This document shows, one piece after another, positions 16,151 to 63,839 of a stretch of 64,000 nt of DNA. Position numbers and translations under genes: made by a program. This DNA comes from Cenococcum geophilum. Lineage: Eukaryota. Every line of letters starts with the position of its first letter. Position 1 is the first letter of the stretch. The notes under the pieces are model-generated. The model saw only the letters and a program-made list of their open reading frames with translations. It searched no databases and had not been told where the DNA came from. The stretch covers positions 9,176,001 through 9,240,000 of the forward strand of contig CP158635.1 of assembly GCA_050273025.1 (NCBI GenBank), given 5' to 3'.

Positions 16151-17185
16151 CTATATAATATTACTTATCCTTAGGATATTTAAATAAAAGTGCTATTATT
16201 TTTAAGCGCTTTATAAGCTCTATAAATCCATACTAATAGAAAAATTATTTATTTAATATTGGGGGGTTTATTATAAGTATAAGTATATTAGGGTATTTTG
16301 CTAAAACTATTAGCTAATAGGTCTATTATCTAAGAGGCCTATTTGGCCTCTCCTCTATAGGTCTAGACTAAAGAAATCCTTATTGTTTTTCTGTTTTTTA
16401 GTTCTATTTTTGGTTTTCTAAATCCCTAATCCTAACTTTAAAATATTTTTTTATATTTAACGTTTAGTAAAAATAAGTAATAATGGTCTAATAAAATAAA
16501 TACCTTTTACGTCACCTCTTCTTTTATAGATATGTTTTAAACCCTTTTATAGTAAAGGGTAATCTACCTTATATTTGCTAGGCTGAGTTATAGGACTTAT
16601 ATCCTTAAAATATACTTTAATACTACTATATAGCCAGCTACTTAGATAGTAAGCCTTTTACTACCAGGTTTTTATTAATTATTTAGATCCTAATAATATG
16701 GAGCTAATATATATATCTCTCTTTGTCTAGAAATACCACTGCTTTTATTAATAAATAAATTACCACAGCGCTTTAAAAGTTTGGCATTATTATAGACTAT
16801 AGAATATAGATAAGAAGCGGAGTTTTATATTCTACTGGAATTAGGAGCTAATATTTAAGTAATGAACGATTTTAGTTAGACGCCGCTGTTACTGGCTACG
16901 AGTAACGGTTATAAGGTGGTGGTAAAGCTACTTCTTATATAGAATAACATCGATCTAAACTCCGAGGATAAATTTAGGGCTATACTACTATTATTAGCTA
17001 TAGAATATAGAAGTAAGGTAGTAGTAAAGCTATTACTTATATAGGATAACGTTAACCTAGATCCTAAGAGCGCTCTTAAAGATATACTACTATTATAGGC
17101 CGCGATAAACAGGTATAAGGGAGTAGTAAAGTTACTACTTATATAGGATAGTGTTAGCCTAAATCCTAAAGGCTTCTATAATTAA

Positions 17186-18164: not shown

Positions 18165-18240
18165 CTATAATTAAATACTATTATTAGCGGCTGCGAAACG
18201 CGGGTATAAGGTAATAGTAAAGCTATTGCTAATAAAGGAT

Positions 18241-18443
18241 TGTTAGGCCATAGAGACGCACTAGCCGTAACCGGCTTAGCGCAGGCGAGGCGCAGGCGAG
18301 ACGCCTACAAAACATAGTCGCCCCGTATTAGAGAACAGCAGAATTTAGTTCTATAGTTCTACTTCATTAAGAACCAGATACTCTTTGCATCCCGTTACTG
18401 TTGTTACGTTACTATATGCCCTAAGGACCTTAGCGTCCTAATA
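18241..18443 (+). repeat. 5' LTR of Gypsy #1
   Basis: TGTTAGGC...CCTAATA; colinear with 24643-24845, differing by transitions. Confidence 0.95.
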
Positions 18444-18579
18444 GTACTAAATTCTCATCCCTTTTTAGGGGTAGTAGCCTAATAACACAGCGGTCTACAA
18501 AGGCCACGACTATATAGCGGCAACCCTCTGTTAAGAAGACGACCTATATTTATTAACTACATCACAGCCCATCGACCTA

Positions 18580-21500
18580 ATGGCGAGACGCGGGCGTACT
18601 AGCGCAGTACGTACTACCGAGTCTAGGAATCAGCCCTAAAATAACATAGGTAAACCCTTATCCTGGACAGAACCGAAAGTTACGGGCGAAGGGGATATAT
18701 AGGAAGAAATACAACGGCTAGAGAACGAGAAGCTACAACTCCTAGAGCAAAGAAAACTATACTTGCTTAGGGAAGAGGTGGAAGTGCTAAGACGGCGTTA
18801 ACGCGATAAGGTAACGTCGACTCCCATTCCTAACCCATCTCTATAACCTTAAATAGTCCCATTAGAGTACTTAGGGGGTAGCCTAATGCATTCGAGCCTT
18901 AAGCGGAGGGCTACTGATATATTAGGCGCTCCGTTAAAACGGGCCGTTAAAATAAAGAAGATTGCTCCGTATTATGGTAAGACTATATAAAAGCACTAAG
19001 ACTTCCGCGACAGCTTAAAGCTAGCATTCCGCCTAAAGCGCGACGGCTTTATAGATAAGAATACTAAAGTCGCGTTTACTATATAATATATAAAGGGGAC
19101 CAACCGAACCCTTTAGCTATAGTACGAAGATAACTATTTAGACACGTAGTTTACCTAGGAGGAGCTTATAGAATTCCTACTTAACCAGATTAAAAGTCCT
19201 ATTAATTAAGAACTCTATATAGCCCTAACCTATTTAAGGGCAATACAGCGAACCGATTAACTAGTAAATAAGTTTACTGCTTACTTAACCTCCTTAGAAG
19301 CGTAAATTAACCCTCCTTATAATGCAAAGTATCTAATAATATATCTGTTCGCGAAGCTGCGGCTAGAGCTACGGGTTGCTATTACTAACTATTAAGAATT
19401 CCCTTAAACTCGAGACTAGCTAGTTTCCCTAGCTGCCCTATTAGAGGAAAACCAAAAGAGCGTAAGCGTCCTATAGGGTAGAAGCAATAGGCGCGCCGCA
19501 AACTTAAATACCAAAACTACCCAGTTAGGTAACTTAGGAAAAGTGGACTCTAAAACCACCGCCGGCGATTTAACGGCGGGGCGAAGCAATACCGCCGGGG
19601 GTTTAATATAGCCTAAAGGAAACTACACCAAATATAGGCAGCTAGGACATTAGTGGCGATAATATAAAGTGCAGCAATAGAATCAACTACCGCTTAGCAG
19701 CGTAAACGCTACCTCTATACTAGAAAAAGATAAGCGCCCTTAAGTACCCTTATAGCCCTAGGGCGTAAGCTCCTACTAGATTATAAGGAAGCTATTACTG
19801 TTTTAGGTAAAGTCCTCTTTAAGCAGACCTAGAAGGAGACCTTAGTAATGCTTAATATCAGTGCTAAAGTAAATATAGTTAACTAGCGATTTGCTATAGA
19901 GTGCAACTTTAAGATACTAAATGTAGAGCTACCTACCTACTCCTAGTTAAATAAGACTTAGGCATATTGCTATAAGGCCTATAAGGTACTACTAAGAATA
20001 AAGGACAGCTAGGGCAAGATTAGGGAAGTAACCCTTATCTACTATAGAATGGCTAATACATCCCCTACTGTTACCCTAGGTATACTAGGGTTAAAGAAGG
20101 CCCAACTTTTTATTAACTATAAGGCGAAGGCGTGGCGATAAAAGCTAAATGGCTCGTCCCTATTACTACAAACCCTTAAGGGTTTCGTAGAGTCTCTCCA
20201 AACAGAATTTAGGGTCTTTACCCTATTGACTTCTGGAGTAATACCTAGTAAGTAAGACGACGGCAGCTTACTAGTCCTCCCCCCATAGTTAAAGGAAGTT
20301 AACAATGTCTTCTCCTATAAGGAAGTAGGAAAGCTACCCTAACACTACTAAGGCGACTATGCTATTGACCTAGAAGAGGGATAGGAGGCCCTATATGGGC
20401 CGCTCTATAACCTCTTAGCCAAGGAGCTAGAAGTCCTAAGGGAGTACTTAGATAACGCCTTAGCTAAAGGCTAGATTTAACTAAGTACTAGTCCCACAGG
20501 GGTACCTATCCTCTTTATACCTAAAAAGGATAGGAAGTTGCGGCTCTATATAGACTATAGAGGCCTTAATAAGGTAATGATCAAGAATCGTCTTACACTA
20601 CTATTGATTAGTAAGACCTTAGACCGCTTAGCAGGTTTTAAGATCTTTACTAAGCTGGACCTAACGCATACGTATTACCGCCTTCGTATCCATTGTGGCG
20701 ATAAGTAGAAGATAGCATTCCGCACGCGCTACGGCCACTTTAAGTACTTAGTTTTGCCTTTTAGGCTAACTAATAGACTAGCGACCTTTTAGGGCTACAT
20801 TAATTGGGCCTTATTAGGACTGGTAGACGTCTTCTATATAGTCTACCTTAATAATATTCTAATTTTCTCTAAAAATCTAGAGGAATACTGGCGCTACGTA
20901 CTAGAAGTGCTATATAGGTTGCGATAATATTAACTATATATAAACCTTAAGAAGTGTAGGTTTAGTATACGAGAGGTTAAGTTCCTAGGATATATTATTA
21001 GTCCTAAAGGCGTAGTAATAGATCCTAGCTGGGTAGAAGCTATTACTAAGTAGAAGAGCCCTCAATCCTATAGGGATATTTAGGTCTTCTTAGGTTTTGC
21101 TAACTTCTATCATTAGTTTATTTATAAATACTCTGCCATTGCGAAGCCTATTACTAATCTCCTAAAAGAAGTAAAAAACGGCCGTAAAGCTAGGCCTTTT
21201 AATTGGCTAGAGGAGGCGGAGCAGGCAATACGCTGGCTCTGCGACGCCTTTACAACGGCGCCGCTTCTATAACACTACACGCCGGGCCTACCGACTTAGT
21301 TAGAGACTGATGCCTCTATATAAGGCCTAGCAGCAATTATATTATAGCTATTTAAAGATAGCCTTTAGTATCTAATAGCCTTCTAGTTTAGGAAGCTTTT
21401 GCTAGTAGAGCGTAATTATAAGACCTATAATTAGGAGCTACTAGCTATTATAGAGGCTTTTAAGCATTGGAGATACTATATTAAGGGGCTATTAAGCCGC

Positions 21501-23450
21501 CTAAAAGTGCTCTTAGATTATAATAATCTAAAGGGTTTTATAAAAGTAAAAGCCCTTAATAAACGGCAAGCTAGATAGGCTATAACCCTGGCTGCCTATA
21601 ACTTTATTATTAAGCATAGGGCGGGAAAAATAAACCCCGCAGACGCGCTGTTAAGGCGACCCCTAGGCGTAGAGGGTCCGCCAGAAGAAAACACCATGCT
21701 ACTACTACTCTAAAGGACTTTGGGAATATAGGGCCACTAACTTAAGGTAAAAGTCCTATTAGGTATATAGGAAAGCGAGCCTTCTATAGAGGTGTCGCTT
21801 TTATAGCTATAAGCTAGCGACCTAATAGAGGTACGCCTAAGCAATGTAGTATTATAGTTTAACTGGGTAACCGGCACGCATGCTGTTAAGTAGCGTGTAA
21901 TAAGGACCTAAGTTAGAGTAGCAAGCGCTTAAGAGAGTGCCTATAAGTTTAGTACGGAAATAGTCGTTAAGCTTATTAAAGGACTTTAAACTATAGATAA
22001 CTTTGTGCTACAAAAGCGCAGCGACAGCGTAGATACGGCGAGAAGCCGTTAATGCGCCTACTTGAAGCTAGTGTGGCAGTTTAATTCCGATGGACTACTT
22101 TGTCACCACGGGAGGCTATATATACCCCTAGACCCAGTAGTTCGTATAAAACTCCTATAGATCCACCATGATAATACCCTAGCTAGGCACTTTAGTAAGA
22201 AAAAGACTCTAGATTTACTTACGCGTAAGTACTACTGGCCTAGTATAAATGCGGACGTTGTGAGCTATATCTCTACCTATAATCTATGCTAGCGTATACG
22301 TGCGCCTTAATATCGCCCTTATAGCGAGCTCCAAGCGCTACCTTACCCAGATTAGCCGTGGTAGGAGATTATAATAGACTTTATTATAGGCCTACCGCCT
22401 AGTAGACGAGGCGATAAGGTATATAACGCGATATGCGTAATAGTTGACCGCTATACTAAGATGGCCTTATATCTGCCTATAGTAAAAACTATTACTATAA
22501 CCGAACTTGCGGATCTCTTCCTTAACGAAATAGTACGCCGTTTTGGAGCCCCTAGAGGGATTATATCTGATTACGGTAGTATCTTTACCAATAAGTTCTG
22601 GTCGGAGTTATGCTTTACTACGAAGATTAAATGTAGGCTAAGTACGGCCTTTTACCTATAAACGGACGGGTAAACAGAACGCCAGAACTAAACCCTAGAG
22701 TATTACCTTTATGTATTCTATGACGAGAAGTAGAGCAACTGGGTAGGCCTCTTATTGCTAGCCGAATTTGCCTATAATAATGCTAAACATAGCACGATAG
22801 GTATAAGCCTATTCTATACCTGCTATGGGTTTTACCTACGTCTAGAATACAAGGTTAAGGCAGACGATAGTAGTTCTATTCTAGCCGCCTTTAAGAGGAT
22901 TAAAAGAATATCCCTTAAACGCGAAGCGCTGGCGAAACGCTAAAAACACGCCGCTAAGGCGCAGGCGAAATACTATAATCGTTATTACTAACCACAGGTA
23001 TACAAAGTAGGGGATCTAGTCTTGCTATTAACTAAAAACCTTAAACTAAAAAGGCTAAGCAAGAAACTCACAGCACGTTTTATTGGACCTTTTAGTATAG
23101 CCAAACCAGTTAGAAAGTAAGCATACCGACTATATCTACCTACGTCTTACCGTATCCACCTAGTATTCCATATTAGCTTACTAGAGCTATATAAATAACG
23201 TAAGGGCACTACTAAAGACCCTCTACTAGGGCCTATTAAGCTAGACGATTAAACGGACTAAGAGGACCAATACGAGGTAGAAGAAGTACGTAGAAGGAAG
23301 GGACGTAACCAGACCCTACAGTACCTAGTTAAGTAGAAAGGATGGCTAAAAGAATATAACTAATAGGTCCCTATAAAGGACATTAATAAGGACGCAAAGG
23401 AGACGTATAATAGTTACTTTACACTAAGGGGTAAACGGAAGAGAAAGTAG
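18580..23450 (+). pseudogene. gag-pol of Gypsy #1
   Basis: RT VYLNNILIFS (YLDD) at ~20841; RNase H LETDAS at ~21301; integrase IISDYGSIFT in ORF-track fragment 22461-22661; chromodomain YEVEEV...YLVK*KGW at 23271-23350. Confidence 0.92.
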
Positions 23451-23559
23451 GCGGGAAAATAAAAAACTTTTAATTATAACTAAGATTACGCCCTACTAGC
23501 GGGGCGACAATAGAACGACGGCGGAGTGATAGCAGTACGCCGACAGAAATATAGATACT

Positions 23560-24347
23560 CTACAGCTCTAGCGAATCTTCCCTCTCCTCCCCTCCTTCTT
23601 TATCCTCCTCCTCCTCTCCCTCCTTATCCTCCTCCTCTTCCTCCTCCTTATCCTCCTTACCCTTATTCTCCTCCTTATCCCTTACAATAGGAGGCATATT
23701 GGCTTATAAGTACTATTAGTATATACTACGACGGCGAAACACCTGCGCTACAATACGTACTAAAGCGCGTATTACGTTAAGAATTCCTTTAAGAGTATAA
23801 CGGATGGCCTATAATTCCTGTACTTAGAGTAGGGGAAAGTCTTCGCCCTTTAGGCGCTAGCGGAGACCGTGCTTGGCGCTAGTGCGTACTAAGGCCTTAA
23901 TATCCTTCGTGAAGGACTTCTAGGCGGCAGCGACGCGAGCGTTAAGGTCAGCCGTGTCTCCGCTAGCAACCTACCGGCGCTTAGCCCTATTAATAAGGGC
24001 GAGTAGCTTATTTAGGCGGCTATAGAAGGCCTTAGGGACCTAGTCTATTAGCTATTAGAACCTAAACTAACGCATTTAGACTTACTGGTTGATATAACTT
24101 ATTTAGTTATTGGCAGTACCGGTAATTGCGGTTGGTCTGCTTGCCGTAGGTGGCCCGCCTAGTGGTGGCTATACGCTTAGTATAGCGGAGGTAGATTGGT
24201 TTTAGTAAGGCTGGGGGAGCGGCTTGCGAGTGATGTGGGAGCTTTAACGGTGTCTAGTAGGGTTAGTGACGGCTACAAGCTAGTATAAAGAATACTTATG
24301 GAAGGTTCACTAATAGGCGGACCGATAGCTTGGCGCTTGCGATTTAT
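23560..24347 (-). pseudogene. Antisense spliced accessory gene inside Gypsy #1: six-Cys cluster (inferred), helical region, acidic tail
   Basis: Introns 24254-24299 and 24040-24085 (GTAAGT-type donor, CTAAC/CTAAT branch, TAG acceptor) join a continuous frame. E/D-rich tail at 23575-23685; TATA-like CTATAAAG at ~24447-24454. Confidence 0.7.
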
Positions 24348-24642
24348 AGTTAATTAGAAGTTGTGAAGAAGGCGAGTCGCAGGCTAAACGAATTAAAATG
24401 GAATTGGAAGGGAAATCTAATATCCTACCTAGGTGGGAACTCCTACCTTTATAGATCTCTATAAGGTCCTATTATTACATTATTCTATTATTATATTGTC
24501 CTATTGTTATATTGTCCTATCGTTATATTGTCTAATTTACTTAAATTTATCAAAAACTTTTTATTTAGAGAAGGACAATAATAGCACTCCTATTATATAA
24601 TAGCGTCGGCTAAGGACAGCCGCTTAAGAACGGGGGGGTAAT

Positions 24643-24845
24643 TATTAGGCTATAGAGACGCACTGGCCGTAACCGGCTTAGCGCAGGCAAAGCGTAGGCG
24701 AGGCGCCTATAAAACGTAGTTGCCCCGCATCAAAGAACAGCAGAATTTAGTTCTATAGTTCTACTTCATCAAGAACCAGATACTCTTTATATCCCGTTAC
24801 TATTATTACGTTACTATATGCCCTAAGGACCTTGGCGTCCTAACA
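24643..24845 (+). repeat. 3' LTR of Gypsy #1
   Basis: TATTAGGC...CCTAACA followed by TSD AGGAT. Confidence 0.95.
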
Positions 24846-25599
24846 AGGATAGTATTAGCCTAAACTCTACTAATATTAAAGGTCGGACTCTACTTTTATA
24901 GGCTGCAGAGTGTGGATAAGAAGGGATAGTAAAGCTACTACTTGTATAGAAAGGCGTTAACTCTAATTTTAAGGATAGTAATAGTCGGACACTACTCTTA
25001 TAGGCTGCTTAATGGGTATATAAGACTGTAGTAAAACTATTACTTAAGGACGGCGTTAACGCGAAATCTAAGGATAAATATAGTAAAACGCCGTTTTGGT
25101 GGGCAGTGGAGGGCTAGTATAAGATAAAAGAAATATATTTATTAAATACGTGGCTAATAGGGTTAATAGATAAGATATATAAACTAGTGGTTTAGCTGCT
25201 GCTTAGAAAGAATAATGATATAGACTTTAATACTATATATACTTGACTTTTATTAAAAGACTAGTTACTAAGAAAGAGTAAAGGCTGTGGTTAACTTCCT
25301 TATGCTAAGTAAACTATTGTCGCTAACTCTAGTATTATTCTCTTCTTTATTTTCTTTCTACCTATCTTTATACTAGCTACCTCTTAATTTTATATTGTAT
25401 TAAGTTATAGGGGCGTAGCCTTATTTAAGAGATATCTGGCGATCTTTTAGTAGATCGCGTAAGAGCCCCGCTATATTAAAACTTTATACGTTATAAAACA
25501 AACTAAAACTAATAGGTATGATTAGTTATAGACCTAAAAACGCTGTATATCCACACTGTTTGTTAAAAATTCACCGCCTATTTCTATTACTTACTATCC

Positions 25600-27904
25600 C
25601 TTTTTAAAAATTTATTATTTATTGTCCTTTTTTAAGTAAATATGCTATATTTAAGATCCTAATTTATATAGTTTTGGCGCTTAAAGCAGCACTAAAGGAT
25701 TAAGCCGTAGCGCCTATATTATTCCCACCTACGCCCTATACCTTATTGTATTCGCTAAGACTAGAATAATAAGGCTTTTTTTTTTAAATTTAGGAAGTTA
25801 TACGATGCTATTGCCGCCAATAATTAAACTTTTAAATTTATTATTTACTATTTCTATAAGCGTTCTAATAGCCCTTCTAATAGGCCTTTAATGGGCCTAT
25901 TCTGCCTTTAATTAATAAAGGAATTATTATTAGCTCTCTTTATTATTGCTATCTTCCTTAGTTTTTATTTTTATTTTTACCTATAGCAGACTGCGCTAAC
26001 TCCGCGGTTTAATAGCTACCTTTAAACCTTTACTAACTATCCTCTAAAGTGCTTGCTTATTAGATTAAGCCTAAAGCCTTAACGTCTGCTATTAGAGATA
26101 TTTTTTACTTTCTTTAGGCGCAAGATAAATATTCCTACGAGTATCCTTAATCTCGGATTTAATTAATATTTATCCTTTTACTTTTAATTTACTATAGATT
26201 ATAGGCAACCTACTATTTCCTAAAAGGACTCCACTATTAGGATTTTAGCTTATTTGTAACTACGTATTAATATAATATGCGTTTTTTATTACTATTAAAT
26301 TATAGTACAGAACCTAAATAAAAAAAGCGATTAAATAAGTAGGTATACCTATAATATACCTATAACTGCTCCTTACTATAATTAGGGTTATAATAGTGCT
26401 TATAGATAATCTATTTAAACGAGATATATATTTAGTTACCCTTTTTCTAGCCCTTATAATCGCCGATGGCGTTATTAATGAAATTTAAAGTATTTTAGAT
26501 CTATCTTTACTCTAATTTAATACCTTAAATAGATTCTTCTAATTATTCTTTAATGCGGATATAGATAAGGTTTTTATACTGCGACTAATATGCCCTATAG
26601 GGAGTATAGCGGCCAACTCTGTAATAAAACTAGTAGTGCTATAAGATATAATTAAAGAGCTCGTAAAACGCGGGTGCTATAAGCGTATATTAACGGCCTT
26701 GCTAAAGAATAATTATAGAGCCTATAGGAAAGAAGTAAATATATAGAAAAGTAAGGTAATATATTATTTATATAGTTTTATACTAACATTTTAAAACTAA
26801 CAAAAGCTATTAGATAAGCTATTACTAAGCTAGTTATATTCGCAAGAGGATAAAAAGAGTAAATTTTAAGCCTCTTATAGTCGAACTTAGTTCCTATAGA
26901 GGTTACTAGTGCTTAAACTTTTAAAGCTAAGCTTAGAGATATCAAATTACCTTAAAACCTTAAATGTCTACTAAAATATAAGCCCTTAAGATATAAAGTT
27001 ATTTACAGCTTCTATCGTAATTAGCATTATACCCTTAGTAAAGTTATTTAACCGTTAGTAAAAATAGCAAATAGCGTATAATATACCGTTTATTTTCTAA
27101 AGGCTGAGCCTAATATTATAGGTTGCTGTCTATGGTATAAAAAGCGCCTTTTAAGGTAAGACTTTAGCTTAGTATAGGAAGGCGTTTGCTTATCTTTTTA
27201 ATAGGATTTTAATAAAGTTATATCTACTCTATTACTGCTAAGAGAGTAAAGCTTTAGCTACTAGGGAAATTTTAATAGCGTGACTTAAAGACTATATGCT
27301 AAAATGCCCTTGGGCTAGCTGCTCTACTTTATTTAAGTATATTAGCATTAATATCGCCAAATAGGTTGTATTTTATATTACTAGCTATTTGCTATCTACG
27401 GCCTTAAAGTATTATTTATAGAACGGGTGCCTCAGCCCTATAGAAAACTATATTAAGCTTAGCTTATACCTCTTCTAGGACTATAGCGTTTTATATAAGC
27501 TAACTTTACTAATAAGCGTATATTTCTACTATAAATGTTCTTTATAGATAGAATTAGACTTAAATTGGGCTAATTATTATTCTAGCTACCTTTAAACCCC
27601 TTCTATATTCTGCGGCCTTGTATATACTTATAAAATTGTCGCTGTTACTAGGCGCTGCCTATTTTGCTTTAGCTAATTATAATATTAACAATTTCTAAAA
27701 CCGCGTTACTTTAATATATATATTAATTAGTATATAAATAAGTTACCTAAGGGGCCAGTAGACTGTTTAGTATGTAAGTATACCTTTTAGAATCCTTATA
27801 AGTTGCGAAGTTACTTAGATAAAATCTATGGAGTTTATTTTATAGGTATAGGAAAGAGCCTAAAACATAAAAGAGAGAGAAATAACAGAGGAGGAGATAT
27901 ATAA
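25600..27904 (+). pseudogene. DUF3435-like (Starship captain-type tyrosine recombinase family) gene with C-terminal Cys/His zinc-finger region; RIP-degraded; 5' boundary uncertain
   Basis: KPKA...FL*AQDKYSYEYP*SRI*L at 26065-26165 (family pattern LWxxDxHxYxHPRxRxQ); GLHY*DF; VTLFLALIIADG at ~26435-26470; C-terminal YFLKAEP...GCC, FCGL...RCLFCF and CLVCKYTF...L.SYL..IYG; stop at 27902-27904. Recognised from memory of the family, not by search. Confidence 0.7.
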
Positions 27905-28249
27905 TTTTACGCTAGCAAGATATAATATTTATTAGATATTTAAATAATATAATACTATTTTACTTTATAATTATTCGCCCTATATTCTTACTTAACCTAA
28001 ATTAATTAATTAATTAATTCTATTTATTGCCCGATTCGGTCCCTTTTTAGGTCCATATAGGCTACTACTTTTCTATATAGGAAAAATCCCCATAGGGGGG
28101 AAAAACCTAGGTATTTTAATTTAGCTAGTCCTACGCGTTCCGCCTTCGCCTAGCCAGTATATCTTTATATCTTTTAGTCTGCCTTATATACTATGCTTTC
28201 TAGGTATATTAGAAAATCTAGGAGGTAAGGGGAGTAGGAGGGTTTAGTG

Positions 28250-31200
28250 TCTCACTAGTGTGTCGCCTATAGCTAGGCGGGGGGTAACTAGTCCCTAAGG
28301 GACCGGAATAGGGCATATCCTTTAGTGTCCTCCTATTAGATTTCGTATGCCGTTTAGAACTGTTAGAGGATTCCTTATTCTATAAGCCATTTTGCTGCTG
28401 CTTATAGGCCCCTATTTATAGATAGCATCTAGGTAATATTATTTGTGCCTACGCTAGTAAGTAGCTAGTCCCTTACTAAGCGGTAGCTGCAGAATAGTAG
28501 TATATGGCGTACTGACTGGGCAGGCTAACCGTATATGCATTAGGGTGTGGTATTTAAGACGTAGATACTTATAAGCTATACATTTAAGCCTAGGACCTCC
28601 ATCCTTAGTAGGAAGGCGGCCGTAGCTTTTACCCTTATTAGTCCTTTATATAGGGGGAGAGTTAGTATTAATTATAGGGTGTTCCATATAGCTGCGTCTT
28701 ATATTCTCGCTTCCTCCTTCTATCGTTGTTTCTACTTAAGGTCTACCTATCTTGCTATTAATATGGTGGACCTTTATCTATATTAATAGCCTCCTATCCT
28801 CTATTGTCGCCGTTATAGCGCTTTGCTAGTGTAGCTCTAGGTCTCTACCTAGTGGGCTAGTAACTCCTATATTTCCTTTTCTTTTTCTACTACTTATAGG
28901 TAGAGGGCTTCCTGGCTAGTATGTTTAGGCGTATCGCCCCTTTAAGGGGCCCTCGCTCCTTATATGTGTCTCGCTCTTTATATATATCTCGCTCCTTATA
29001 TATAGTTTAGCGTTTAGCGTATATTTTCTTCTACTGGCTGGCCTTATACTATAACTGCTCTTTATATTACAGTTATATTAATATATAAGTCTAGTGGTAA
29101 AACTACTGCTTTGCATTTTAGTGCTATGTGTGGTGTTTTCTTATAGGCCCCTATGGTTCTGCGTAGGTATTAGTTTTATAGCTTAGTTAGTAGCGCTAGG
29201 GAGCTTCTTACTAGCCCCGTACTATTTAGTCCTAGGCTCTATATCTAGGAGCCGTATAGCATTATTAGCTTTACTACAGCTATATATAGTAGGCGTGTGT
29301 ATCTAAAAGAGAGTCTCTAAGTTAAAGCAATAATTCTGTTACGGCTTAAATAAATACCTCTAAACCGAAGCTTAAACGAATGCTATATTACGAAGATACT
29401 AAGCTAAGGAGAAGGAAAAAAGGGGTCGCTAGGACCGATGTAAACAAATATATAGGGTAAGCCGCTAAGGCGCTAGCTTTGGGCGAGCTAATCGTAGGTT
29501 AGCAGAATATGGTAGAATTTAGCAGGTAACGTGTAATAGCGCCGTTACATCACCCCCCTCTTTAAAAGAAAGCCTGCCTTTAGGCTTAGTTAGAAATAGG
29601 GTAGCACTAGGCTTATAAATATAGGATTATAAAAATATAAGATAAGGAGATAAAGGGGATATAAGTACGTCCAGACTAAGTACAAAGGGCAATTATGGGC
29701 TAAGTGGAAGCACTAGGCTAGAAAGAGTAGCCGCTAAAAGTCTTAGCACAGATCTAACTAATTAGACAACTTTAACCGGCGGTCGAAGTTCCTAAATATC
29801 TAAAATTTTACAGTACTAACCGAAAACGGCAGAATATAGCAGAATTTGGCAGACAGCTATATTAGGGCTTTAGGGCGTTTTTGTCCCTATATTCTTCTGG
29901 TAACTTATTATCTTTATTATACTAGCATTCTATCTATTCGTCTAGGTACTTTAGGGGTTTAGGCGTATTAGGGTATTAGTTACAGAATTCTTTAAGCTTT
30001 TGGGGGCAGCCTATAAAGTTCCACGTAGAATACTAGGTTAGGTTAGGATCGTAGCCTTTCTATTAGATATGGTATTTTAGCGTTCCCTATACTATTTTGC
30101 ATACCAGTATTTCGTTAACCTCCTATTTATTATTACCGTTTACTTAAACTAGTAGGGGAGGCTCGTTCTTTTGTCTAGGTAATAGGTTATTTATAGCTTT
30201 CTATAACTTATCTGGCGAGAAAATAGGGTAAACCTTAATTGAATCTGGGAGCTTTATTTTGTACAAGTTGCCTATCTTCTTAAAAACCTTATATAGTCCT
30301 ACTATCTAGTAGTCTAGCTTACGGCTAGGTCGTTCAGTCTTTTAATTCCTTATAGTAACCCAAACTATATCGCTAGGGGCAAAATCGGGCTCTTGACGGT
30401 GTTTATTTGCCCGCTATTTTATTAACCTCTAAGCTTTTTCTAGGTTCTTACAGGCTACCGTCCAGGCCTCCTCTAATCGTTTAGCGTACTATTAGGCCTT
30501 AGTATAGAATAGCTTCTCTTATATAGTTTAGGGTTCTTTTAGCCTTTTCCAGTTAAAGCTTATACGGGGTAAATATCCCATTTCTAGCTAAATTAGGGCA
30601 AACCCTGTGGAGTTATAGGGTAGTGTTGCTTGCGCGTAGTCTATTAAGGGTAGTAGTTTAAACTAGTTGTCCTAGAAATAGTTAACAAAGGGCCTAAGCC
30701 TCTAGTCTAGGTACTAATTTATAATCTCTATCTAACCGTCTGTCTGGGGGTAATAAGCTATAAAAAGCTTTAGCTTAATGCCTAGGATCCGGGTAAACTT
30801 ATTCTAGAAGGCCGATATAAACTATAGCCTATAATTAGACATAATAGTATCTAGTGGTCTATAGATTTGGTAGACGTAATAGATATATAGCCAGGCTGCC
30901 TTTTTAGCATTAATGTTCTTATAATAGGGAATTAAGAATAGGCGTTTACTAAAGCGGTTAACTATAACTATAACTATATCGTATCCGTTATGGTCCCTAG
31001 GTAGTTTATAGAAGTCTATAAAGATATACTACTAAGGGCGCTTTAGTATTGGGAGTGGCTTAAGTAGTCCTAGGGTCTTATTCCGTGGGATTATAGCTCT
31101 CTAGTAGTCTTCGCAGTTCTATATATATTAATTAATATCCACAACCATTCTTAGCTAGTAGTAGCGGTAGTTAATAATTTTATAAGTTTTATTCTTACTA

Positions 31201-34200
31201 GGGTATGCCGTAGAGACTTAGCAATAAGCTTCGCGGATTAGTTCAGTCCATAGATTATTAACGTTAGGGACTATAAGCCGCTCCTAGTATAGGAGTAATC
31301 CTTCCTCCGTCTTAAAATCGGGGTCTCCCTTTATAGCTTATTCGCGGAGAGCCCTTAAGGCATTAGCCGTACGGTTTATAGTTAGGAGGCGGTTAATTAG
31401 CCCTATTAGCTTATCTAAAGACTCCTCCATTGGTGCTAGCTTATTTTACTATAAGTTTAGCTCCTTAAGGATCCGTAGGTTAAGCTGTTCTAGATAAAGG
31501 AGGGCGCGCGTCTAATATTAGGTCTTTAACTTATCCTAGGGCCCTATATCTTATTCTCTTTAGGTTAGAGTATTAGCCTTAAAGTTTTACTTACTAGAAC
31601 GATATATAATCGTAAAGAAGAATTAGGAGAGTATTTTAGCCTACTAGGCTTATTATCTAGTAAGCTGCTTTATAGTTATAAAGTACTCTAGGGCTTTATA
31701 ATCTATATATATCTTAATCTAGGAGTTTATACCTTTAAGCTTTGCGCGCTATTAGGAGAGTAATTAAATAATAGCTAATATTTCTTTATTGTATACTTTA
31801 TAGTTATACTTAGCTAGGTCTATTATTTTTAAAAAGAAAGCCATAGAGTACCATTTACTGTCTAGATATAACTGTAATAGGATTCCCGCTATAACCCTAT
31901 TAGAGGCGTCCGTTTCTAGCATTAATTTAAGGTCTAGGTTATAGTAATAAAGGATTAGGGAAGAGATAAGCCGATCCTTTATCTCTTTAAAGGCTTCTAT
32001 ATACCTATTATTAAAGATAAAGGGCGTGTCCTTCCTGGTTAGTTGTATAAGAGGTTTTACCGCAATTCCGTAGTTATAGATAAACTAGTAATAGAAGTTA
32101 TAAAAACTAAGGAAGGATTAGATTCCCTTTACTATATAAGGGGGCTTCTAGTTATAGATTGCCTCTACCTTTTTAGGGTTAACCTTAATTCCTTCTATAG
32201 TTATAATAAACCCAAGGTATTTTATATGTTTTACCTTAAACTCGCATTTTTTAATATTAACTTATAAGCCTACGTTCCGTAGTCTCTCCAGAACCTTCTT
32301 AATATAAACTTAATACTTAAGTTCGTTGTCTAAGTATATAAGAATATCATCTAGGTATACCGTGTAGAATTTGTTAAGGTAATTAAAAAGAACGTTATTT
32401 ATATACCTTTGGTACGTAGCTGGTCCGTTTATTAGTCTAAAAGAAAGAACTTTATATTTATAGGAACCATAACGGGTACGGAACGTTATTAAATCTTTAG
32501 ATGCAGGGTTTATCCTAATTTAGTAGAAAGCTTGGCGGATATTAAGTTTAGTAAAGATCTTTACCTAGCTTAGACGTGTAAGGGTCTCGTTAATTAAAGG
32601 AATAAGATACCAGTCCTTTTAAGTAATAGCGTTTAGCTTTTAATAGTTAATATAAAAATAAAGGCCTTTATTAGGCTTTTTTATAAATAAGATAGGGGAA
32701 GTAAAAGGGGCTTAACTTGGCTTGATAAACCCTTTATTTAGGTAATTAATTAAGTACTACTTTATTGCTTTTAGCTTATCCGTTAATTAATAGTAGAGGG
32801 GGCTATAGCCTAGCGAGTTATTGGCTTCTAATTAAATCTTATAATTATACGTCTAGTAGGGGGGTAACTTGTCTAAGGCCGCCTTTAAGAATGCATCCTT
32901 ATAGTTTATATAAATGGTAGGAAGGAGGCGTTTAACTAGTTCCTCGTTGGTTTCCTTAGCTGGCCTTTCCTCTCTATTATTAATAATTCGGTTAATTTTA
33001 TATATAGGCTTATTATAAAGATCTTATTGTCCTTTTAGTATATATTAAAGTAAAACGCTATAGCACTAATTACAGCGATGTTTATAGTGGGGGGGTTGCC
33101 TAATAATAGGAGCGTATATAACTTTAGGGACTTCCGGGGTACTAGCGTTATTATTACTTCTTTTAGCTCCTATTGTATCTTTTAAAGGTTATCCCTCATA
33201 TCCTATTAATACGTTCTTTTCCATACCGGTTAAATCCGTACAATTTAGACGTTATCTATATTACTATCTATCCCGCTTCTATACATAAAGTTTTTTTTAA
33301 ACGTAGCGCTTTAGGAGAGTATCTTTATCGGTATAGAGTTCTTTCTAGCTTTACGGCGGGCGTCTTCTTAGGTAAAGGCTAGGTTACAGGCCCTAACATC
33401 CTACTAGTATATAGGGTTAGCCCTTACGGCTAGTGTCTTATGGTTAGTTCGGATCTCCCTAACAAAGGAGGGCAACTTTGGTCTATCCTCCGGCTAGACA
33501 AACCGTCTTTATTACACGTTTAACTAAATATTAAAATAGGACATCTATTTTCGTCTAAGGATTATATTATAAAACCCTAGGTTTAGGATGCAAAAGGGAA
33601 TACTATATTGGCGTCGTCCGTTAAGAGCGATATGCAACTTTAAGACGTGGGTAATAGGCCGACTAGCTTGGCCGTTATAGCCTTTTACCTAAATAGGCTT
33701 CTCTAGTCGGATAGCTTCTGCATTTAGAAACTTGGTAACATTATTCACATAGGCAGTATTTATAAAGGCGAAGCTATTTACTCTAGTGTTAATAAGGGCT
33801 ATTATATTAACTCTATATCCATTTTAAGATACTATATATAGAACTATAAAATACTTTCCACCTATTAACTAACTAAGATTAATCTCTTTAAGATTAATAG
33901 GGTACCCTAGGGGGGAGTCTTTTCCTAGGGTTCTTCTTTTCCTAACTTATCGGACGTTTCTCCTTTCTCTATCTCCTTAATATCGCCTATATCCTTTAGC
34001 TCCAAGCAGGATAAGGTAAAGTAACCCTACTTATCGCAGTTATAGCATATAGCCGAGGCAGGGTTAATTAGAGTATTGCGGTAAATACTAATCAATAGCG
34101 TGGTATGTAACTGGTTAGGTAAGGCTTACTAGTGCGTAGTTATAACCGCCTTTGGTATAGGAGTAGTTATAACCTATCTTCCGGCTCTAGCTCCTATAGG

Positions 34201-37200
34201 TGTAGTTAGCGAGTTCTAATTATTATGGAGTTGCTTCTACTAATTAGGGCGGGTGTTAATCCGCTTTAGTTTTAAGTCTAATAATAGGTAACGAGCTGTA
34301 AGTTTTTCGTGGGTTAGTAGGTTATCTAAGGTTATAGCGATCTTTTCTTATAGCCGGATTGTTAGCTTATTATATAGGTCTAATTAGTAGTTCTTAAGGG
34401 GAACCTAGCCTTTTCCTATAAGGTATAGGAATTAAATCTAGAATTTGGCAAAGGGTTGGTTTAGTTTTATTATTAGGCGATTATAGTTATAACGGGCATC
34501 CCGTACTTTGTTTGGGTTAACGTAAATAGCCGCTAGGTACTATATTATCTTATTAACAGATATAAATTAGATAGGGGAGTTGTCCTTAAACTTAGCTTAA
34601 AGGTACCGTTAGGCGTCCCTAGTAGTTTAACCAAAGACATAAAGCATTTTGGCTTCTTTAGAAAGGAAGTAGTTATAGTTAACACGGAGCTTTCCTTATA
34701 CTTAAATCCTCTAATTCTTAAAGGTAGGGTCTATTTTATTAGATAGTAGTAAGGGGTCGGGGAGCTTAACGGACTTTAATTGCTTTATTATTATATCTAT
34801 ACTCCCTAGTATATCGTATTTAGTAGAGTAAATAGGTCGGCTAGGGCTTTAAAAAGGGGAAGCTAGGCTATTTTATAGGGCCGCGAGGCTTTCTAGGATC
34901 TCTTATAGGGTTTCTTATATATTTCTCGCTTTAAGACAATCGGCTTCCTAGCTAGCTGCAAGGGCGCGAATCTGCTCGCGTATGTTTACGATATTATCAT
35001 TGTCTTTAATTTCTAATCCCAATTAGATCTTAGGTTCCTCTTAGGTAGAGGCAGCTCTCTTAAATAAGCTTACTTTAGGTGCTATTATTAGCTTCCTAAG
35101 GTTTGTCGGTATTATACGCTTTGGTTTTAATTTTAGGGGTATAGGTCTAGTCCTATTTGGCTTATAAGGTGGGATATTATCTAGGCCTTCCCAGGCAATA
35201 TAGAGTTGTTTTAGTGTCTAAGTATAGCACATTAATGCGTTATTATAGACGAAGTTTCTTTAGGGTGGGATATTATTAAGGCCTTCCTAGGCAAGGTAGG
35301 GAGAGCTTAGTATAATATTATAGCTTAAACAAATGCCTCTAAACCGAAGCTTAAACGAATGCTGTATTACAAAGATACTAAGCTAAGGAGAAGGAAAAAA
35401 GGGGTTGCTAGGACCGATGTAAACAAATATATAGGGTAAGCCGCTAAGGCGCTAGCTTTAGGCGAGCTAATCGTAGGTTAGCAGAATATGGCAGAATTTG
35501 GCAGGTAACGTGCGATAGCGCCGTTATAAATTCGTAATGCTGCTAAGAATGCTACTGCTCCCCTACGGGTCGCCTATATAATATACTTGTTCTAGTTTAG
35601 TTTAGAATCTACCTAGACTCCTAGGACCTTAAGGGTAGCTTCTAGTTTTACTTTACAGCCCTAGATATTTACTGTTAAGGCTAGGTTACTACTTGCCCTT
35701 TTTTTCCTTATAAAGTGGATAAGCTAGTATTTATCTGGTGCAAATTTAGCGCCATGTTATTTTGCCTATACAATACACCTATTATACGCCTAGTTTAGCC
35801 TAGCGCAGTTTTCTACTGCTGTGTTTCCCTATATAATTAGGTTTGTATTGTCTATAAATCCTAGGGCTATTATATTCTGGCTATTATTAAATATCTCTAG
35901 TAGTTTAGATATAAAGAAGAGGAATAGGATTAGTAATAGGGGTGATCCCTATAGGATGCCTATAGGTGTTAGGATTAGTTTGCTTTTATAGCCCTTAATT
36001 ACAATCTTTATAGTACGCCCTATTAAAAAGGCTTAAATAAACTTAATTATCTAATCTAGAAGTCCTTTCTTTCTTAGGATCTATAGAAGTCTCTTATATA
36101 ATACGTTATTAAAGGCTCCGCTTAGGTCTAGGATTAGTATAGATATAGTACATCCTAGGTGGGTTTACCATGCCGCTTAAACGCTAGAGGTAATTAGGGA
36201 GAGAGCTAAGAGGGTTAATTGTTTCTTTCTTGCGCCTATTTATGTCCACGGTAGCAGCTTCTGTGCTTTTGCCGCTTCTTATATACATTTTATAACTATC
36301 TTTTCTAGGAGTTTTCCTAAGGTATTTTCTAGGGCAATTGGGCAGTAGCTTCCTAGAAGGGAGTAGTCTTTTTTCTTTACCTTTTATAGGATAACCATAG
36401 TTATTACTTTACAGTATTTGGGTAGTTTACCTCTCTAGAGGTAGGTAGTTATAGCCTTAGTAAGTAGTATTGCTATCGCTTCTGCCGCGGCTTTAATTAC
36501 CTCGTTTGGGATCTTATCTAGCCTTAGCGCTTTACTAGTGGGGAGATTTTATATAGCGTCCTTTATTTCCTTTACTAATATTATATAGCTTATTTTAATA
36601 GGTGGGGGGTAGGATTAGATGCTAATATCCTATAGGTCTACTTGGCCCGCGCCTAGGAAGAACCTCTCTGCTAGTATTTTAATTTTTTCCTTATTGTTAT
36701 TTATATACTAGTCTTATTCTGTCTAATAGAGTGCGGGTAAGTAGGGGTCCTTTAGCGTTTCTTTGGCGGCTTATTTACTCCACTTTAATATGCGCCAGAG
36801 TCCCTTATTATATAACTTAGTAGGGTTTAAGGTAATTTTTTCTAGGAATTAGCGCCAGTTATTTCTACCCTCTCTCCGTATTGTCTTCTTAAGCCTGTTT
36901 TTTAGGGCCTTATAGCTCTAGTGGTAGTAGGCTTTACCTATTACGCTATACTGTTGTCTCGGCCTTCTTACGCCCGTAAGTAGCTGGGCCGCCTTTAGCA
37001 ACTATTTACGGCGGGCGTGTTTACTAGGCTGGGCCTTTAGGCAGTATTCTTCTAGGCAGTTACTTATAGTCTACTAGATGTCCTCTAGCGATGCCTAGGG
37101 TATAGCTACTAGCCTATTAGAAACTTCCTGGGTGTATTTTTCCTGGATAAGTTTTTTAGTAGCGTATCTCTGGCGAGTTCGTTACGCTAGTGCGGTAACG

Positions 37201-37830: not shown

Positions 37831-40049
37831 GTTCGACATACCTGCTTATCCAGGCCTCTACCTCAGTCCTTAAGTAGCTTTCCCTTACTAAGCCTTAGGG
37901 CTTAGGGCTTTCCACAAGCAGTTAGCTGTTACCACCAATAATACGGGGATTTTCACCAGTTCTCTTGGGTATCTTATAATAGGATTAACCTAAGTACTAG
38001 TCTGCCCCCTAGCAGTCTATATAAGAGTCTCCTCCTAGAGTTGGTACGCTTTTGCACGGCTTAGGAGCCTTCTATAGCCTCTAGTTTTACGCCTTTTATC
38101 ATCGTTTCCGCCGGCACGGGCATAAGCTGCCATTTATAGGGGTCGCAACTCCCGTCTTACGCGCCTACTGACGTAATCCTATAAGGGCGTCGTAACTGCA
38201 TCCTGCAATGTGGAAGCCTTAGGTACCTTCTACGGTTAAGGCCAGCCAAGCCTCTCCCGCCTAAGTAACTCCTGTTTGCTCCTTAAGCGTACCTTACTAG
38301 CGTACTGCCCTAGTGAGCAGCCGTACTGCCCTGGCGAGCAGCCGTACTGCCCTAGCGAGCAGTCCTATCTATTAGTACACCGATACGCGTATCCGTTCTC
38401 TTGAGCCATGTAGTAGTCTCTTTAGCCAGGATGTAATCCTGCCTGCCTACTAGGTGCACTAGGGGTTAGAGCCCAGCTAAGGGGTAAGGTCCCTAGAGCT
38501 AGCAGTAGCTACTACGTACTACGCCCTGTAGGAGGCTAGTAGTAGTATAGGGGCGCAACACCCTATACTACTGCTAGTTCCCGTTTCGCGTTGCCTGTAA
38601 GAGTCTCCTTATAACAGGCCGACCGTGTCTTGTAGGAGGGGTTGTAGATGCTCGGTCCCGCGCCAGGCGACCTACTCTGCCCTCTCCTACTAACTAAGCT
38701 TGTGTCCCCCCTCCTTATAAGCTGGCCTGTGTCTCTAACTTATCGAGTCCTTGTACGACTGGCCTGTGTTTCCTTAGAGCCTTCCCCATATGTATGCGCA
38801 GGTTGCGTGCACCACGCCTATTAAGACCCTCCTGTGAGTCACCTGGTCGTCGAGCGCCATGGGGCCGTCGAAGCTGGCCTATGTTTCCGCTGCCTAGAGC
38901 TTTGCCCGTGTTTCCACCTCGTTAAGCCGTCTGGTCGCCGTCGCGTCGCTATCGCGTCGCTGTCGCGTCTGTCGTCCAGGTCGCGCGCACTACGCCTATT
39001 AAGACCCTCTTCTAAGTCACCTGGGTGTTGTATACCAGATAGGCCCTCGTAGAGGGGCCTTAACGAGTTTTTTAGGCAGGGCCCTAACAAGTTCTTCGCG
39101 GTGGCCTTAGGGCCTTAATAAGTTTTGTACAATTCTGCGACGCGTTAACCTTAACAAGTTCTTATAAAAAGAGGTTCCCTACGCCCTTGCCGTGTCCCTA
39201 TGGTTTCAGAGCTAGTGTAAGCCCAAGGGTGTCCTGTTATACGACTAGGACGCGTCTATATCGACTGGCTAGGTAATAAGGCCAGTTTCGGGCCTGGCTA
39301 CGAGCCAGGTAGTCGTATATTGGGTGGTTTTCGTATCCCAGTTTCCCTTAATGGCCCCCCTAGATAGTAGAGCAGGAGCCTCAGGCCGGGGCAGTAGGAC
39401 TCCTGGTGTTGTTGAGGGCGATGCTTTACTTAACCTAAATTATAATAAAAATATATTTATATCCCAGTTTCTAAATTTATTATTTTTATTTTTAGAATAT
39501 ATTCTATAAATAAAATCTAGATCTTGGTTAATGGATTTAGAATATAGTTTTTTAAATAACTTAACTTTATATATATATCTGCCAGCTAAGCCGTTTTTAC
39601 TAATTTCTTTATAAAGCTCTTTTACTCCCTTACTTACTTATAAGGCTCCCTTACTCTATTATAAAGCCTCCTTATTTCTATATAGTTGTTTAGGAAAAAT
39701 ATATATCTTTATCTTTATAAGAAGCCCCCTAAACTTTCTTAGACTACGACGCCTATACCCTAGACATAGAAGATACTACCTTATATAATTAACTAACTGG
39801 GTATTTAACTAAGGGGACGAAAATCGGTATACCGATTATTAATTACCTCTAGCGTATTAAAGTGTTCCTTAGGAAAGCCTAGCTAAGTTTAACTTTAACT
39901 AATCTTAAGTCGATATAGACGAAGAAGATTTTGTTAAATTAGAGCGGCTGTATAATTTAGCTAAGGTACCTATTAATTAAGGTATTTAGTAAGCTAAAAT
40001 TTAAGTAACGTAGTTAAGGTGTACTATAAAATTAACTTAATAGTAGCTA

Positions 40050-43260: not shown

Positions 43261-43508
43261 TTAGTACATTTTAACTAGGTTAAACAGGATAGGTTAATAA
43301 AGGTTAATTCTAAGACATCTAGATTAGAAAGCAATAACCTTAAGGACTAAGTAAGTTATAGGGCGGCTGACTTATTACTGCTAAGCATATAAAGGTAGAG
43401 GACTTATTAAGCTTACTATAAGCGAGTCTCCAACTTTAATCCAATATGTAAGAATTTGTTTATTTATATATAGATAATAACGAGAGATTCTTAATATGGA
43501 AGCAACTA

Positions 43509-45521: not shown

Positions 45522-45559
45522 TATATAGAAACAAAATACCAAGCTAAGGAAATCCTAAT

Positions 45560-49079: not shown

Positions 49080-49468
49080 TAAGCTAATAAATTTCCTCCT
49101 TAATTCTGCAGACTTCTTTATTCTTAAGCTAAGCGTGCCCTTTTCCTCTTAAATGCTATAACCTTATTTCTTACCTTTGCAACCCATTTATCTCCGTAAT
49201 CTAAAGTTTTATTACTACCTCTTTTAAGAGTATGGATTTTGTTTTAAAGCCGCTTAATAATATCTCTTATCTCTTTCCAGTTACTTCTTAGGTTGTTAAT
49301 CCGATTATTAACCTTCCCTATATAACTTATAATGTAGCAGTTACATTTTTTAAAGCTGCTAACTCTTTTATTAAGTTGGCTAGACCTATAGCTAAGTTAA
49401 TTAACTAAGCTACTTAGTCTCTCTATTGCCCCTAATAGAGTAAGCTAGGGGTTAGTAAGCTTTATTAA
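49080..49468 (-). pseudogene. 3' part of a coiled-coil protein gene, cut by Gypsy #3
   Basis: Minus frame NNRINNLRSNWKEIRDIIKRL...KWVAKVRNKVIAFKRKRARL runs up to the LTR junction. Confidence 0.4.
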
Positions 49469-57320: not shown

Positions 57321-57718
57321 GTAATAGCTTATATTAGCTACTCGTAGGTATATTACCTCCTTACGTCCTTAACCCTTATAATTAATCGCGTAATGTCTTA
57401 TAGTCTCCTTAAATATATACGCTCTATAGCCACTACCTATATTCTATAATATTACGTTACGCCTTTTTACTACTAACGCTTAGCCTATAACTAATTTTAT
57501 ATATTTATAATACTATAGGCGCTGCTAAAAGCAGTATATCTATAAATTATCTTACTTTATACTTCTAAGAAACCTATAATAGTAAAATAATATTCCTTAC
57601 TAGCTATTATATTAAACCTAAAGAATAACCTAATATCTATATTTAACCTATAACGCCAATTAATCCTAAAAGAATTTAATTTATTAGCCCTAGCCTTAAC
57701 CCCTAAGGAGATAGATAC

Positions 57719-63700: not shown

Positions 63701-63839
63701 TAGACTACGTAGTCTATATACTGACGCACCTCCCCCCTAATTAGTTAGTGCTTTATAAGTGCACCAGACGCGTAAGCGGGTGGTTAGTACACCGAACGCG
63801 TAAGCACGCAGTTAGTATGACAGGTGCTATAATTATACA
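57719..63839 (-). mobile_element. Ty1/Copia LTR retrotransposon (full length, RIP-inactivated)
   Basis: LTRs 57719-57990 and 63595-63839, TSD GATAC. gag-pol 63189 to 58209 in IN-RT-RH order: ITHNASRNFISKEF (~60580-60620), RL*TDNTLFL (GLQTDD, ~59165-59190), KCK*VTRSILASKLY and YTDLKSLY...NLVDAITK. Confidence 0.96.

Follow-up and report, generated by a model that had tools for sequence, protein, structure and literature searches.

Has a gene of the DUF3435 family, to which the captains of Starship elements belong, lost its catalytic segment, or has that segment merely been obscured by repeat-induced point mutation (RIP)? The question is raised by a locus of Cenococcum geophilum, lying in a stretch of 64,000 nucleotides (assembly GCA_050273025.1, contig CP158635.1, positions 9,176,001 to 9,240,000 of the forward strand) which is referred to here as the window and whose own coordinates are used throughout. 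A first-pass annotation, made from the letters alone, had placed at 25600-27904 a captain-like DUF3435 gene seemingly without its catalytic segment, either a decayed captain or a shortened, non-catalytic paralog. Both ends of that interval have moved: homology is detectable only from 26064 onwards, and the reading ends at a stop codon at 27923-27925. Judged by its homologies, 26064-27925 on the plus strand is the relic of a DUF3435 gene to whose C-terminus an array of C2H2-like zinc fingers is joined; two or three short introns split it. Very probably it is a RIP-killed copy of a repeated family of such DUF3435 and zinc-finger genes, whose recombinase core is without the segment that carries the tyrosine nucleophile.

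The catalytic pentad of captains is R-K-H-R-Y; in the captain HhpA the nucleophile, Y416, stands 35 residues from Y381, the residue at the H/Y position, and both are needed, the Y416A mutant being inactive (available text of PMC10104507). The window itself is AT-rich fungal DNA bearing the signature of RIP: its GC content is 24-33% over most of its length and 28-30% at 25-28 kb, and the dinucleotide counts in 25000-28100 (TpA 561, CpA 32, TpG 77) are those of a RIPped sequence.

Homology to DUF3435 proteins

The Pfam profile of DUF3435, PF11917, gave no match at E ≤ 10 with the six read-through frames of 25000-28500 or with exon-sized pieces, nor with the sister-copy fragments P0003 and P0004 described below; the sole Pfam rows on the raw frames were weak and unrelated (ELF, E = 0.21; DUF4337, E = 0.19). 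The gathering score of 25.8 bits is not reached by the relic, in which RIP damage and split frames limit a profile test. This silence would suit a chance resemblance in AT-rich DNA that is no relative of DUF3435 at all, a reading to which we give practically no credence: four collinear blocks score at least 10 standard deviations (sd) above 16 control strands, phmmer E-values for the C-terminal domain fall to 3.8e-10 in a search of 1.84 billion proteins, and the frame changes between the blocks coincide with GT-AG introns.

The phmmer query was the frame-1 read-through of 25400-27904, and the target of 1.84 billion representatives returned 21 matches at E ≤ 0.001. Six of these (P0001-P0005 and P0007) are short open reading frame (ORF) fragments from metagenome assemblies, 64-73% identical to the relic, and are other RIPped copies of its family. 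The other 15 are 21-31% identical and confined to the Cys/His-rich C-terminal part. Among them is P0020, a protein of 767 aa from Westerdykella ornata (EI97DRAFT_440482, named as a 'C2H2-type domain-containing protein'), in which PF11917 precedes the Cys/His-rich domain. A homologue search from P0020 led to five DUF3435 proteins of Pleosporales, P0022-P0026 (Alternaria, Pyrenophora, Lizonia, Clathrospora), and all six proteins match PF11917 at E = 1.5e-18 to 3.6e-36. P0009, which consists of the linker and zinc-finger part only, is also from Westerdykella ornata, and the contigs of P0009 and P0020 have the same length (1,484,870); two or more paralogs of the DUF3435 plus zinc-finger architecture seem to be present in that genome.

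The matches of P0020 and P0022-P0026 to the window by tblastn are collinear. Residues 147-189 of P0022 match 26064-26192 (E = 0.01) and residues 153-222 of P0020 match the same first block (E = 0.16); further along, residues 63-176 of P0023 give the best match of all on 26390-26737 (E = 3.3e-6), a stretch also matched by P0025 (E = 5e-6), while P0022 matches within that second block at E = 1.8e-4. Residues 327-398 of P0023 follow on 26959-27129, and the zinc-finger part of the relatives on 27290-27840.

A RIP-aware aligner was also used, in which each codon of the window is scored against a residue by summing over its possible ancestral codons, those that RIP-type C>T and G>A changes would turn into it, with jumps of fixed cost allowed for introns and frameshifts. 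A jump cost of 14 over-fitted, giving 10-15 jumps, and was replaced by a cost of 25 together with controls. On the plus strand of 25000-28100 the scores were 296 for P0020, 164 for P0022, 194 for P0023 and 127 for P0025; the reverse strand gave 41-48, reversed proteins 37-54, and the 16 control strands of equally RIPped window DNA had means of 44-49 (sd 6-8) and a maximum of 69. The collinearity of the tblastn matches and the RIP-aware scores far above controls show that the relic is a true relative of PF11917 proteins. The profile check suggested by the first-pass annotation failed on raw frames, and membership rests on the collinear match to PF11917-bearing proteins.

No longer relatives were found from the zinc-finger alignment, A1, among the proteins of 759-2165 aa that were searched, or from P0008, and no closer full-length relative was obtained. 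Among metagenome contigs searched with a second alignment, A2, one locus, L001, was found, with the match at the end of its contig, leaving no recombinase part upstream of it.

Anatomy and decay of the relic

The place expected for about 150 N-terminal codons, 25130-26063 on the plus strand, is an AT-rich stretch in which nothing is recognisable; aligned to this DNA ahead of 26064, the first 150-156 residues of P0022 and P0020 reach 23-28, where control means are 28-29. The first exon-like block, 26064-26338, has codon starts at coordinates divisible by 3 and holds the start of the DUF3435 domain, aligning to residues 147-248 of P0022 and 153-252 of P0020 with RIP-aware block scores of 67-85. 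At 26196-26207 it reads R-L-stop-A, as had been noticed from the letters, and this faces the motif of the first active-site arginine in the relatives (G-S-R-P-G-E in P0022, G-C-R-L-G-E in P0020). The alignments place the relatives' first arginine variously on AGA 26196 or TAG 26202, the latter derivable from CGG through two RIP transitions, and 6-8 codons found in the relatives are absent immediately after this motif.

The change of frame from the first block to the second is explained by intron 1 (26339-26385, 47 nt, GTAGGT...TTAG), which is the sole GT-AG of the required phase in 26320-26400; only 3% of random RIPped 80-nt stretches offer one. The second block, 26386-26750, aligns to P0022 249-355 and P0023 63-176 with block scores of 41-74 and covers the motifs C-P-V...F-L-A-L-A-L-A-D, P-I-L-R, Q-R-A-G-Y and F-R-R-A-Y. 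The third of these is present as KRGCY (26666-26680), picked out in the first-pass annotation and now aligned with the relatives' version, and the fourth as N-Y-R-A-Y (26711-26725). The ORF fragments P0003 and P0004 from sister copies are 66-67% identical to this block. Within it the Y-R of 26714-26719 aligns to the R-R of P0023 and is the remnant of R-R in the active-site motif [H/Y]-x-x-R-R; P0004 reads H-K at this position, and RIP-type transitions, C>T and G>A, in Arg codons (CGT/AGR) would yield either pair. Three positions ahead of the remnant, where the motif has H or Y, stands K or L.

Behind this block lies a linker at the expected place of the second His and the Tyr nucleophile, 26741-26943, in which neither is seen in any frame. 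The linker of P0020, scored over the same interval, did not stand above controls (best 32.8; control 95th percentile 32.0). A candidate intron 2 (26751-26806, 56 nt, GTAAGG...ACTAAC...AG) has a fitting phase, and a comparable intron is offered by 20% of random 215-nt stretches.

The third block, 26944-27155, aligns to P0020 464-534 and contains motifs resembling P-S-R-Y-L-Q (with its P at 26950) and L-S-Q-V-I-P, as well as the first C-x-x-C (27127-27138), where most other copies have Cys in place of the relic's Y at 27136; the tblastn matches of P0023 327-398 and P0009 81-135 share its frame. It is followed by intron 3 (27156-27204, 49 nt, GTAAGA...AATAG), immediately upstream of an H-L-L-R-C motif, whose phase agrees by inspection with the frame change into the fourth block. 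The relatives P0006, P0008 and P0010, which were called as ORFs, start at or just before H-L-L-R-C, as would be expected if an intron precedes this motif in them too. All three frame changes of the model coincide with GT-AG introns, of 47, 56 and 49 nt, that would give exactly the phase required.

The fourth block, 27205-27925, is the array of C2H2-like fingers. The Cys/His-rich C-terminus had been recognised at first sight; DUF3435 proteins have a homologous domain at their C-terminus, with phmmer matches to P0006 and P0008-P0021 at E = 3.8e-10 to 1e-3. P0005 has a Q in place of the stop at 27902, and the two copies share an end after S-K-I, at 27923-27925.

It is clear that RIP has destroyed this gene. 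The composite model contains 35 stops in 574 codons (22 TAA, 12 TAG and 1 TGA), 34 of them premature. In the C-terminal alignment of 14 relatives, the relic has Tyr in 11 of the 12 columns with His in at least 70% of the relatives and a gap in the twelfth, Tyr in three of 12 conserved Cys columns and stops in two of four conserved Trp columns, all within a C-x2-4-C...H-x3-5-H spacing that is kept as in the relatives. At 26142, 26211, 27136, 27233, 27293, 27527 and 27022, where the relic has TAT or TAG, other copies read CAT, TGT or CGG: Cys is retained in them at 27136 (TGT for TAT), 27233, 27293 and 27527, and the TAG at 27022 is CGG. The relic encodes no protein today and is inert. The earlier suggestion of a decayed captain-like DUF3435 gene is borne out by these stops, by the RIP signature and by the collinearity with PF11917 proteins.

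The interval behind the second arginine motif

In the complete relatives P0022-P0026, M-G-H follows R-R at a distance of 21 residues and Y-Y at 28-29, and about 120 residues more lead to P-S-R-Y-L, making 147-152 from R-R to PSRYL in total. In the relic the R-R remnant and the PSRYL-like motif at 26950 are 58 codons apart if the candidate intron is taken out and 76 if the sequence is read through; in P0020 the distance is 104. The interval is therefore some 70-95 codons shorter than in the complete relatives, as the first-pass annotation had sensed from the little sequence left ahead of the zinc fingers.

Whichever frame of 26700-27000 is read, the 69-residue catalytic block of P0022-P0026 (E-K-T-A-T-P to P-P-G-S-Q-L) reaches only 14-20, while 256 control windows average 22.9 (sd 3.4, maximum 38.4), and over 25000-28100 it gave nothing above 24 control strands. 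In a sliding scan with P0022, blocks taken from residues 116-368 match in collinear order with scores of 41-85, and blocks starting at residue 323 or later score 26-35, the level of controls. With candidate intron 2 removed there is no Tyr at +4 to +62 behind R-R; read through, Tyr occurs only at +16, +17, +19 and +41. The segment with the second His and the Tyr nucleophile is thus not detectable, and the interval is too short beside that of the complete relatives. The failure to find Y-x-x-R-R...G-H...Y, reported at first sight, stands for its G-H...Y part and falls for its R-R, which survives as the Y-R of 26714-26719.

Three other placings of the block were considered and set aside. H-F-K-T-N-K-S-Y-stop-I-S in frame 2 (26787-26825) could be read as M-G-H...Y-Y-I-S, and that frame's block score of 14.7 is less than the control mean. 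Of two further matches, that at 27916-27969 (31.7, z about 2.8) comes after the stop codon and that at 27378-27557 (34.5) runs across the zinc-finger frame, and neither goes beyond the range of the 24 controls, whose maxima are 34.6-38.4.

The Tyr codons TAT and TAC contain no G, and the one C among them mutates to give another Tyr codon. RIP cannot change them, and so the absence of a well-placed Tyr is not an artefact of RIP. The sole conceivable remnant of the nucleophile is I-Y-Y at 26759-26767, which could be it if the relic were a once complete, ordinary captain whose His...Tyr segment escapes notice through RIP, small indels and a wrongly set frame. In frame 1 read through, T-V-M-Y-Y of P0023 does align to the K-V-I-Y-Y found here, most other copies likewise read ATA TAT TA at this place (beyond a loose contig end at 26739), and P0020 scores better read through than with the intron model. 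Against this, the Y-Y match adds only 2.6 units with P0023 and the catalytic block as a whole is below the control mean; the Tyr lies 14-17 residues behind R-R, with Y-Y at 26762-26767 standing 16-17 residues after its first R, compared with 28-29 in P0022-P0026 and 35 between Y381 and Y416 of HhpA (available text of PMC10104507); there is no His, or Tyr derived from His, at the right spacing; and I-Y-Y falls inside the candidate intron GTAAGG...ACTAAC...AG. A hidden segment of this kind is improbable, at roughly one chance in eight.

The relic is one of many copies. Its sequence is present in the genome runs of two organisms (at least half of its words) and in a root metagenome run, and contigs of the genome runs X1 and X5 and of the root metagenome run X6 were aligned to it at 80% likeness or more. 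From X1, 358 contig pieces fit the relic, with up to 19 distinct contigs over one position and a summed depth of 300-1000 against 36 for the exact-match contig; the family is multi-copy, with roughly 10-20 copies, summed contig depth being no strict count. X6 gave 121 pieces at the same likeness, and X15-X17 and X20 contain small shares of the stretch. No RNA run is listed as containing it, and X21, the one RNA run compared, placed 0 reads, which is no test of expression. Differences among the X1 contigs fall at 291 transition places and 11 transversion places, and the only indels listed among the contigs leave out 1-3 nt. None of the aligned contigs has extra sequence between 26740 and 26950, so the short recombinase core is a trait of the family and not a private deletion of this copy; the loose contig ends at 26739 and 26746 continue into collinear, less mutated sequence (N-A-W-K-S-K-A-I-Y). 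In the zinc-finger or linker region some copies are without 244-245 nt (27220-27468), 81 nt (27293-27375) or 45 nt (26993-27039), each seen as a single-contig joint in X1, X5 or X6.

Given that RIP is unable to alter Tyr codons and that the other copies have the same short layout, the loss of the His...Tyr segment would predate RIP, or at least the last round of copying. A complete recombinase working in trans might then have produced the copies, or they may have been carried along when a larger element was duplicated. A bolder form of this would hold that, before RIP, a captain-derived family was proliferating that was already without its nucleophile half and kept the DNA-binding N-terminal part and the five-finger tail; we regard this as unlikely, at perhaps one chance in seven. 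If it were true, the family would represent a non-autonomous 'captain' mobilised in trans, or a DNA-binding derivative competing at the ends of elements, and P0020 with its open frame would be a living example of the truncated architecture.

The alternative put forward at the outset, a working non-catalytic paralog in which a captain-derived zinc-finger protein binds DNA as an accessory or regulator, is very unlikely. The recombinase core is indeed shortened across the family, and P0020, annotated as intact in another fungus, has its domains in the same order and is likewise without the block. However, the gap in P0020 may be an intron of its gene model, and the copies differ mainly by RIP-type transitions, several with deletions of 45-245 nt, which is the behaviour of a decaying repeat and not of a host gene under conservation. 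With 34 premature stops and all 11 aligned conserved His ligands lost, the present copy cannot encode a protein and therefore cannot be a working accessory partner, so that for it the suggestion finds no support. As to the intact orthologs with the same deletion that were asked for at first, P0020 is apparently intact and without the His...Tyr block, its gap being open to the same explanation as a model artefact.

Several points weigh against a RIP-killed copy whose core is without the nucleophile segment. Without a Pfam match to PF11917, its membership of DUF3435 is indirect and rests on similarity to PF11917-bearing proteins. The frame within 26741-26943 is uncertain and intron 2 is a candidate only: the read-through and intron 2 models differ by 30 units with P0020, favouring read-through, and by 2-4 units with the other relatives. 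I-Y-Y (26759-26767) does align, weakly, with V-M-Y-Y of P0023. A strongly diverged catalytic segment could escape a search that used five complete relatives from one order, at about 30% identity. Finally, the repeat contigs are short (150-380 nt) and 19 loose ends lie outside the comparison, so that a copy with a large insertion could be missed.

Surroundings and comparison with known systems

The window is a nest of long terminal repeat (LTR) retrotransposons, with LTR pairs at 18239/24641, 29344/35323, 49463/56909 and 57721/63597, and on the flanks of the relic, no more than 1-1.5 kb away, lie LTR elements and an ankyrin remnant. Upstream, the retrotransposon at 18239-24843 has 203-bp LTRs (18239-18441 and 24641-24843) that are 91% identical, an open stretch at 22365-22661 resembling an integrase core, and a GC content of about 40%, being less RIPped than the neighbouring DNA. 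The three further LTR-like pairs of direct repeats, at 29344-35526 (95% identical), 49463-57323 (81-91%) and 57721-63808 (89-93%), with spacings of 5.9-7.4 kb, show nested retroelements.

A six-frame Pfam scan of part of the surrounding DNA found ankyrin repeats only. These belong to two RIPped coding remnants on the plus strand, at 24873-25130 (Ank_2, E = 4.6e-19 over about 24880-25130) and 16830-17141 (Ank_2, E = 1.1e-9 over about 16830-17060), which are about 70% alike in DNA and lie on opposite sides of one LTR retrotransposon; the former ends about 900 bp upstream of the earliest detectable DUF3435 homology. Elsewhere in the window are a tandem array of about 20 units of 12 nt (44563-44812, consensus near ACCTCCTAATTG) enclosed by inverted repeat arms (43507-43578 and 45452-45523), an 81-nt tandem repeat in three copies that are 68-88% alike (10031-10450) within a Leu/Ser-rich open frame of 139 codons, and an isolated GC-rich island (38001-39000, GC 0.547) in AT-rich surroundings, at which a 91-codon open frame lies on the minus strand (38839-39114). 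Root and soil metagenome runs (X6, X15-X17 and X20) contain parts of the 64-kb stretch.

No Starship ends or cargo are visible around the relic, whose flanking DNA is RIPped and full of nested LTR elements. It is possible, though we would put it at less than one chance in three, that the copies represent a compact, Crypton-like transposon with DUF3435, a few kb in size, and no giant Starship's captain; this would be compatible with a RIP-killed copy of a repeated, nucleophile-less family. As many as 19 contigs at a single position point to a copy number that would be high in a captain, the lack of visible cargo and the LTR elements and ankyrin remnant so close by would fit a small element, and DUF3435-bearing repeats of another fungus were initially annotated as Cryptons (available text of PMC9156397). 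On the other hand, the ends of such an element were not found, decay of the flanks has gone too far for a derelict Starship to be excluded, and the relatives of the relic match PF11917, a clade that the same source sets apart from Crypton recombinases.

RIP-degraded DUF3435 genes are to be expected by the thousand in the genomes of Pezizomycotina, and the copy described here is inert. It does show that pipelines which annotate Starships by counting DUF3435 hits would miss such a relic, on which Pfam fails, and that more sensitive searches could miscount it as a captain. A family without the nucleophile segment also raises the question of whether captain-derived genes spread non-autonomously or as DNA-binding accessories. 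A literature search combining DUF3435 and C2H2 gave no paper with captains in its title; supplements may already show truncated or zinc-finger captains.

Like the captains of Starships (DUF3435 proteins such as HhpA of Hephaestus and Kirc of Enterprise), the relic is homologous over the N-terminal two thirds of the domain, approximately model positions 8-211 of PF11917, which take in the first Arg motif and the [H/Y]-x-x-R-R region. Unlike them, it is without a detectable Tyr nucleophile, which captains carry about 31-35 residues behind the second Arg, or second His segment; it adds the C-terminal array of C2H2-like zinc fingers; and it has no open reading frame, being a pseudogene. RIPped 'derelict' Starships, and a pseudogenised state for many of 10,212 solo tyrosine recombinases, are to be expected according to the available text of PMC11162782. 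The relic resembles these in being a RIPped DUF3435 gene in an AT-rich, transposon-nested region, and differs from them, as they are described in that text, in that its copies share a shortened catalytic core and are multiple within one genome.

Among individual proteins, P0020 shares with the relic the order of DUF3435, linker and zinc-finger array and the absence of the M-G-H...Y-Y segment: its PF11917 match ends at model position 211 of 418, where those of P0022-P0026 reach positions 274-318. Its frame, unlike that of the relic, is open, and the two are only about 24% identical in the C-terminal domain; the block missing from P0020, a gap of 30 residues, may be an artefact of its gene model, in which an intron or a modelling step skipped it, or a real deletion. 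P0022-P0026 have collinear core motifs, and P0023 also has a zinc-finger tail, but all five retain the full catalytic segment that the relic is without.

Crypton DNA transposons combine a tyrosine recombinase with a DNA-binding domain. The relic is like them in belonging to a fungal tyrosine-recombinase element with a C-terminal DNA-binding module, of a kind that can be small and multi-copy. It is unlike them in that Crypton recombinases fall outside the clade of DUF3435 (PF11917) according to the available text of PMC9156397. The relic is a derelict mobile-element gene of an already known kind, mildly unusual in missing the piece that would carry the catalytic tyrosine.

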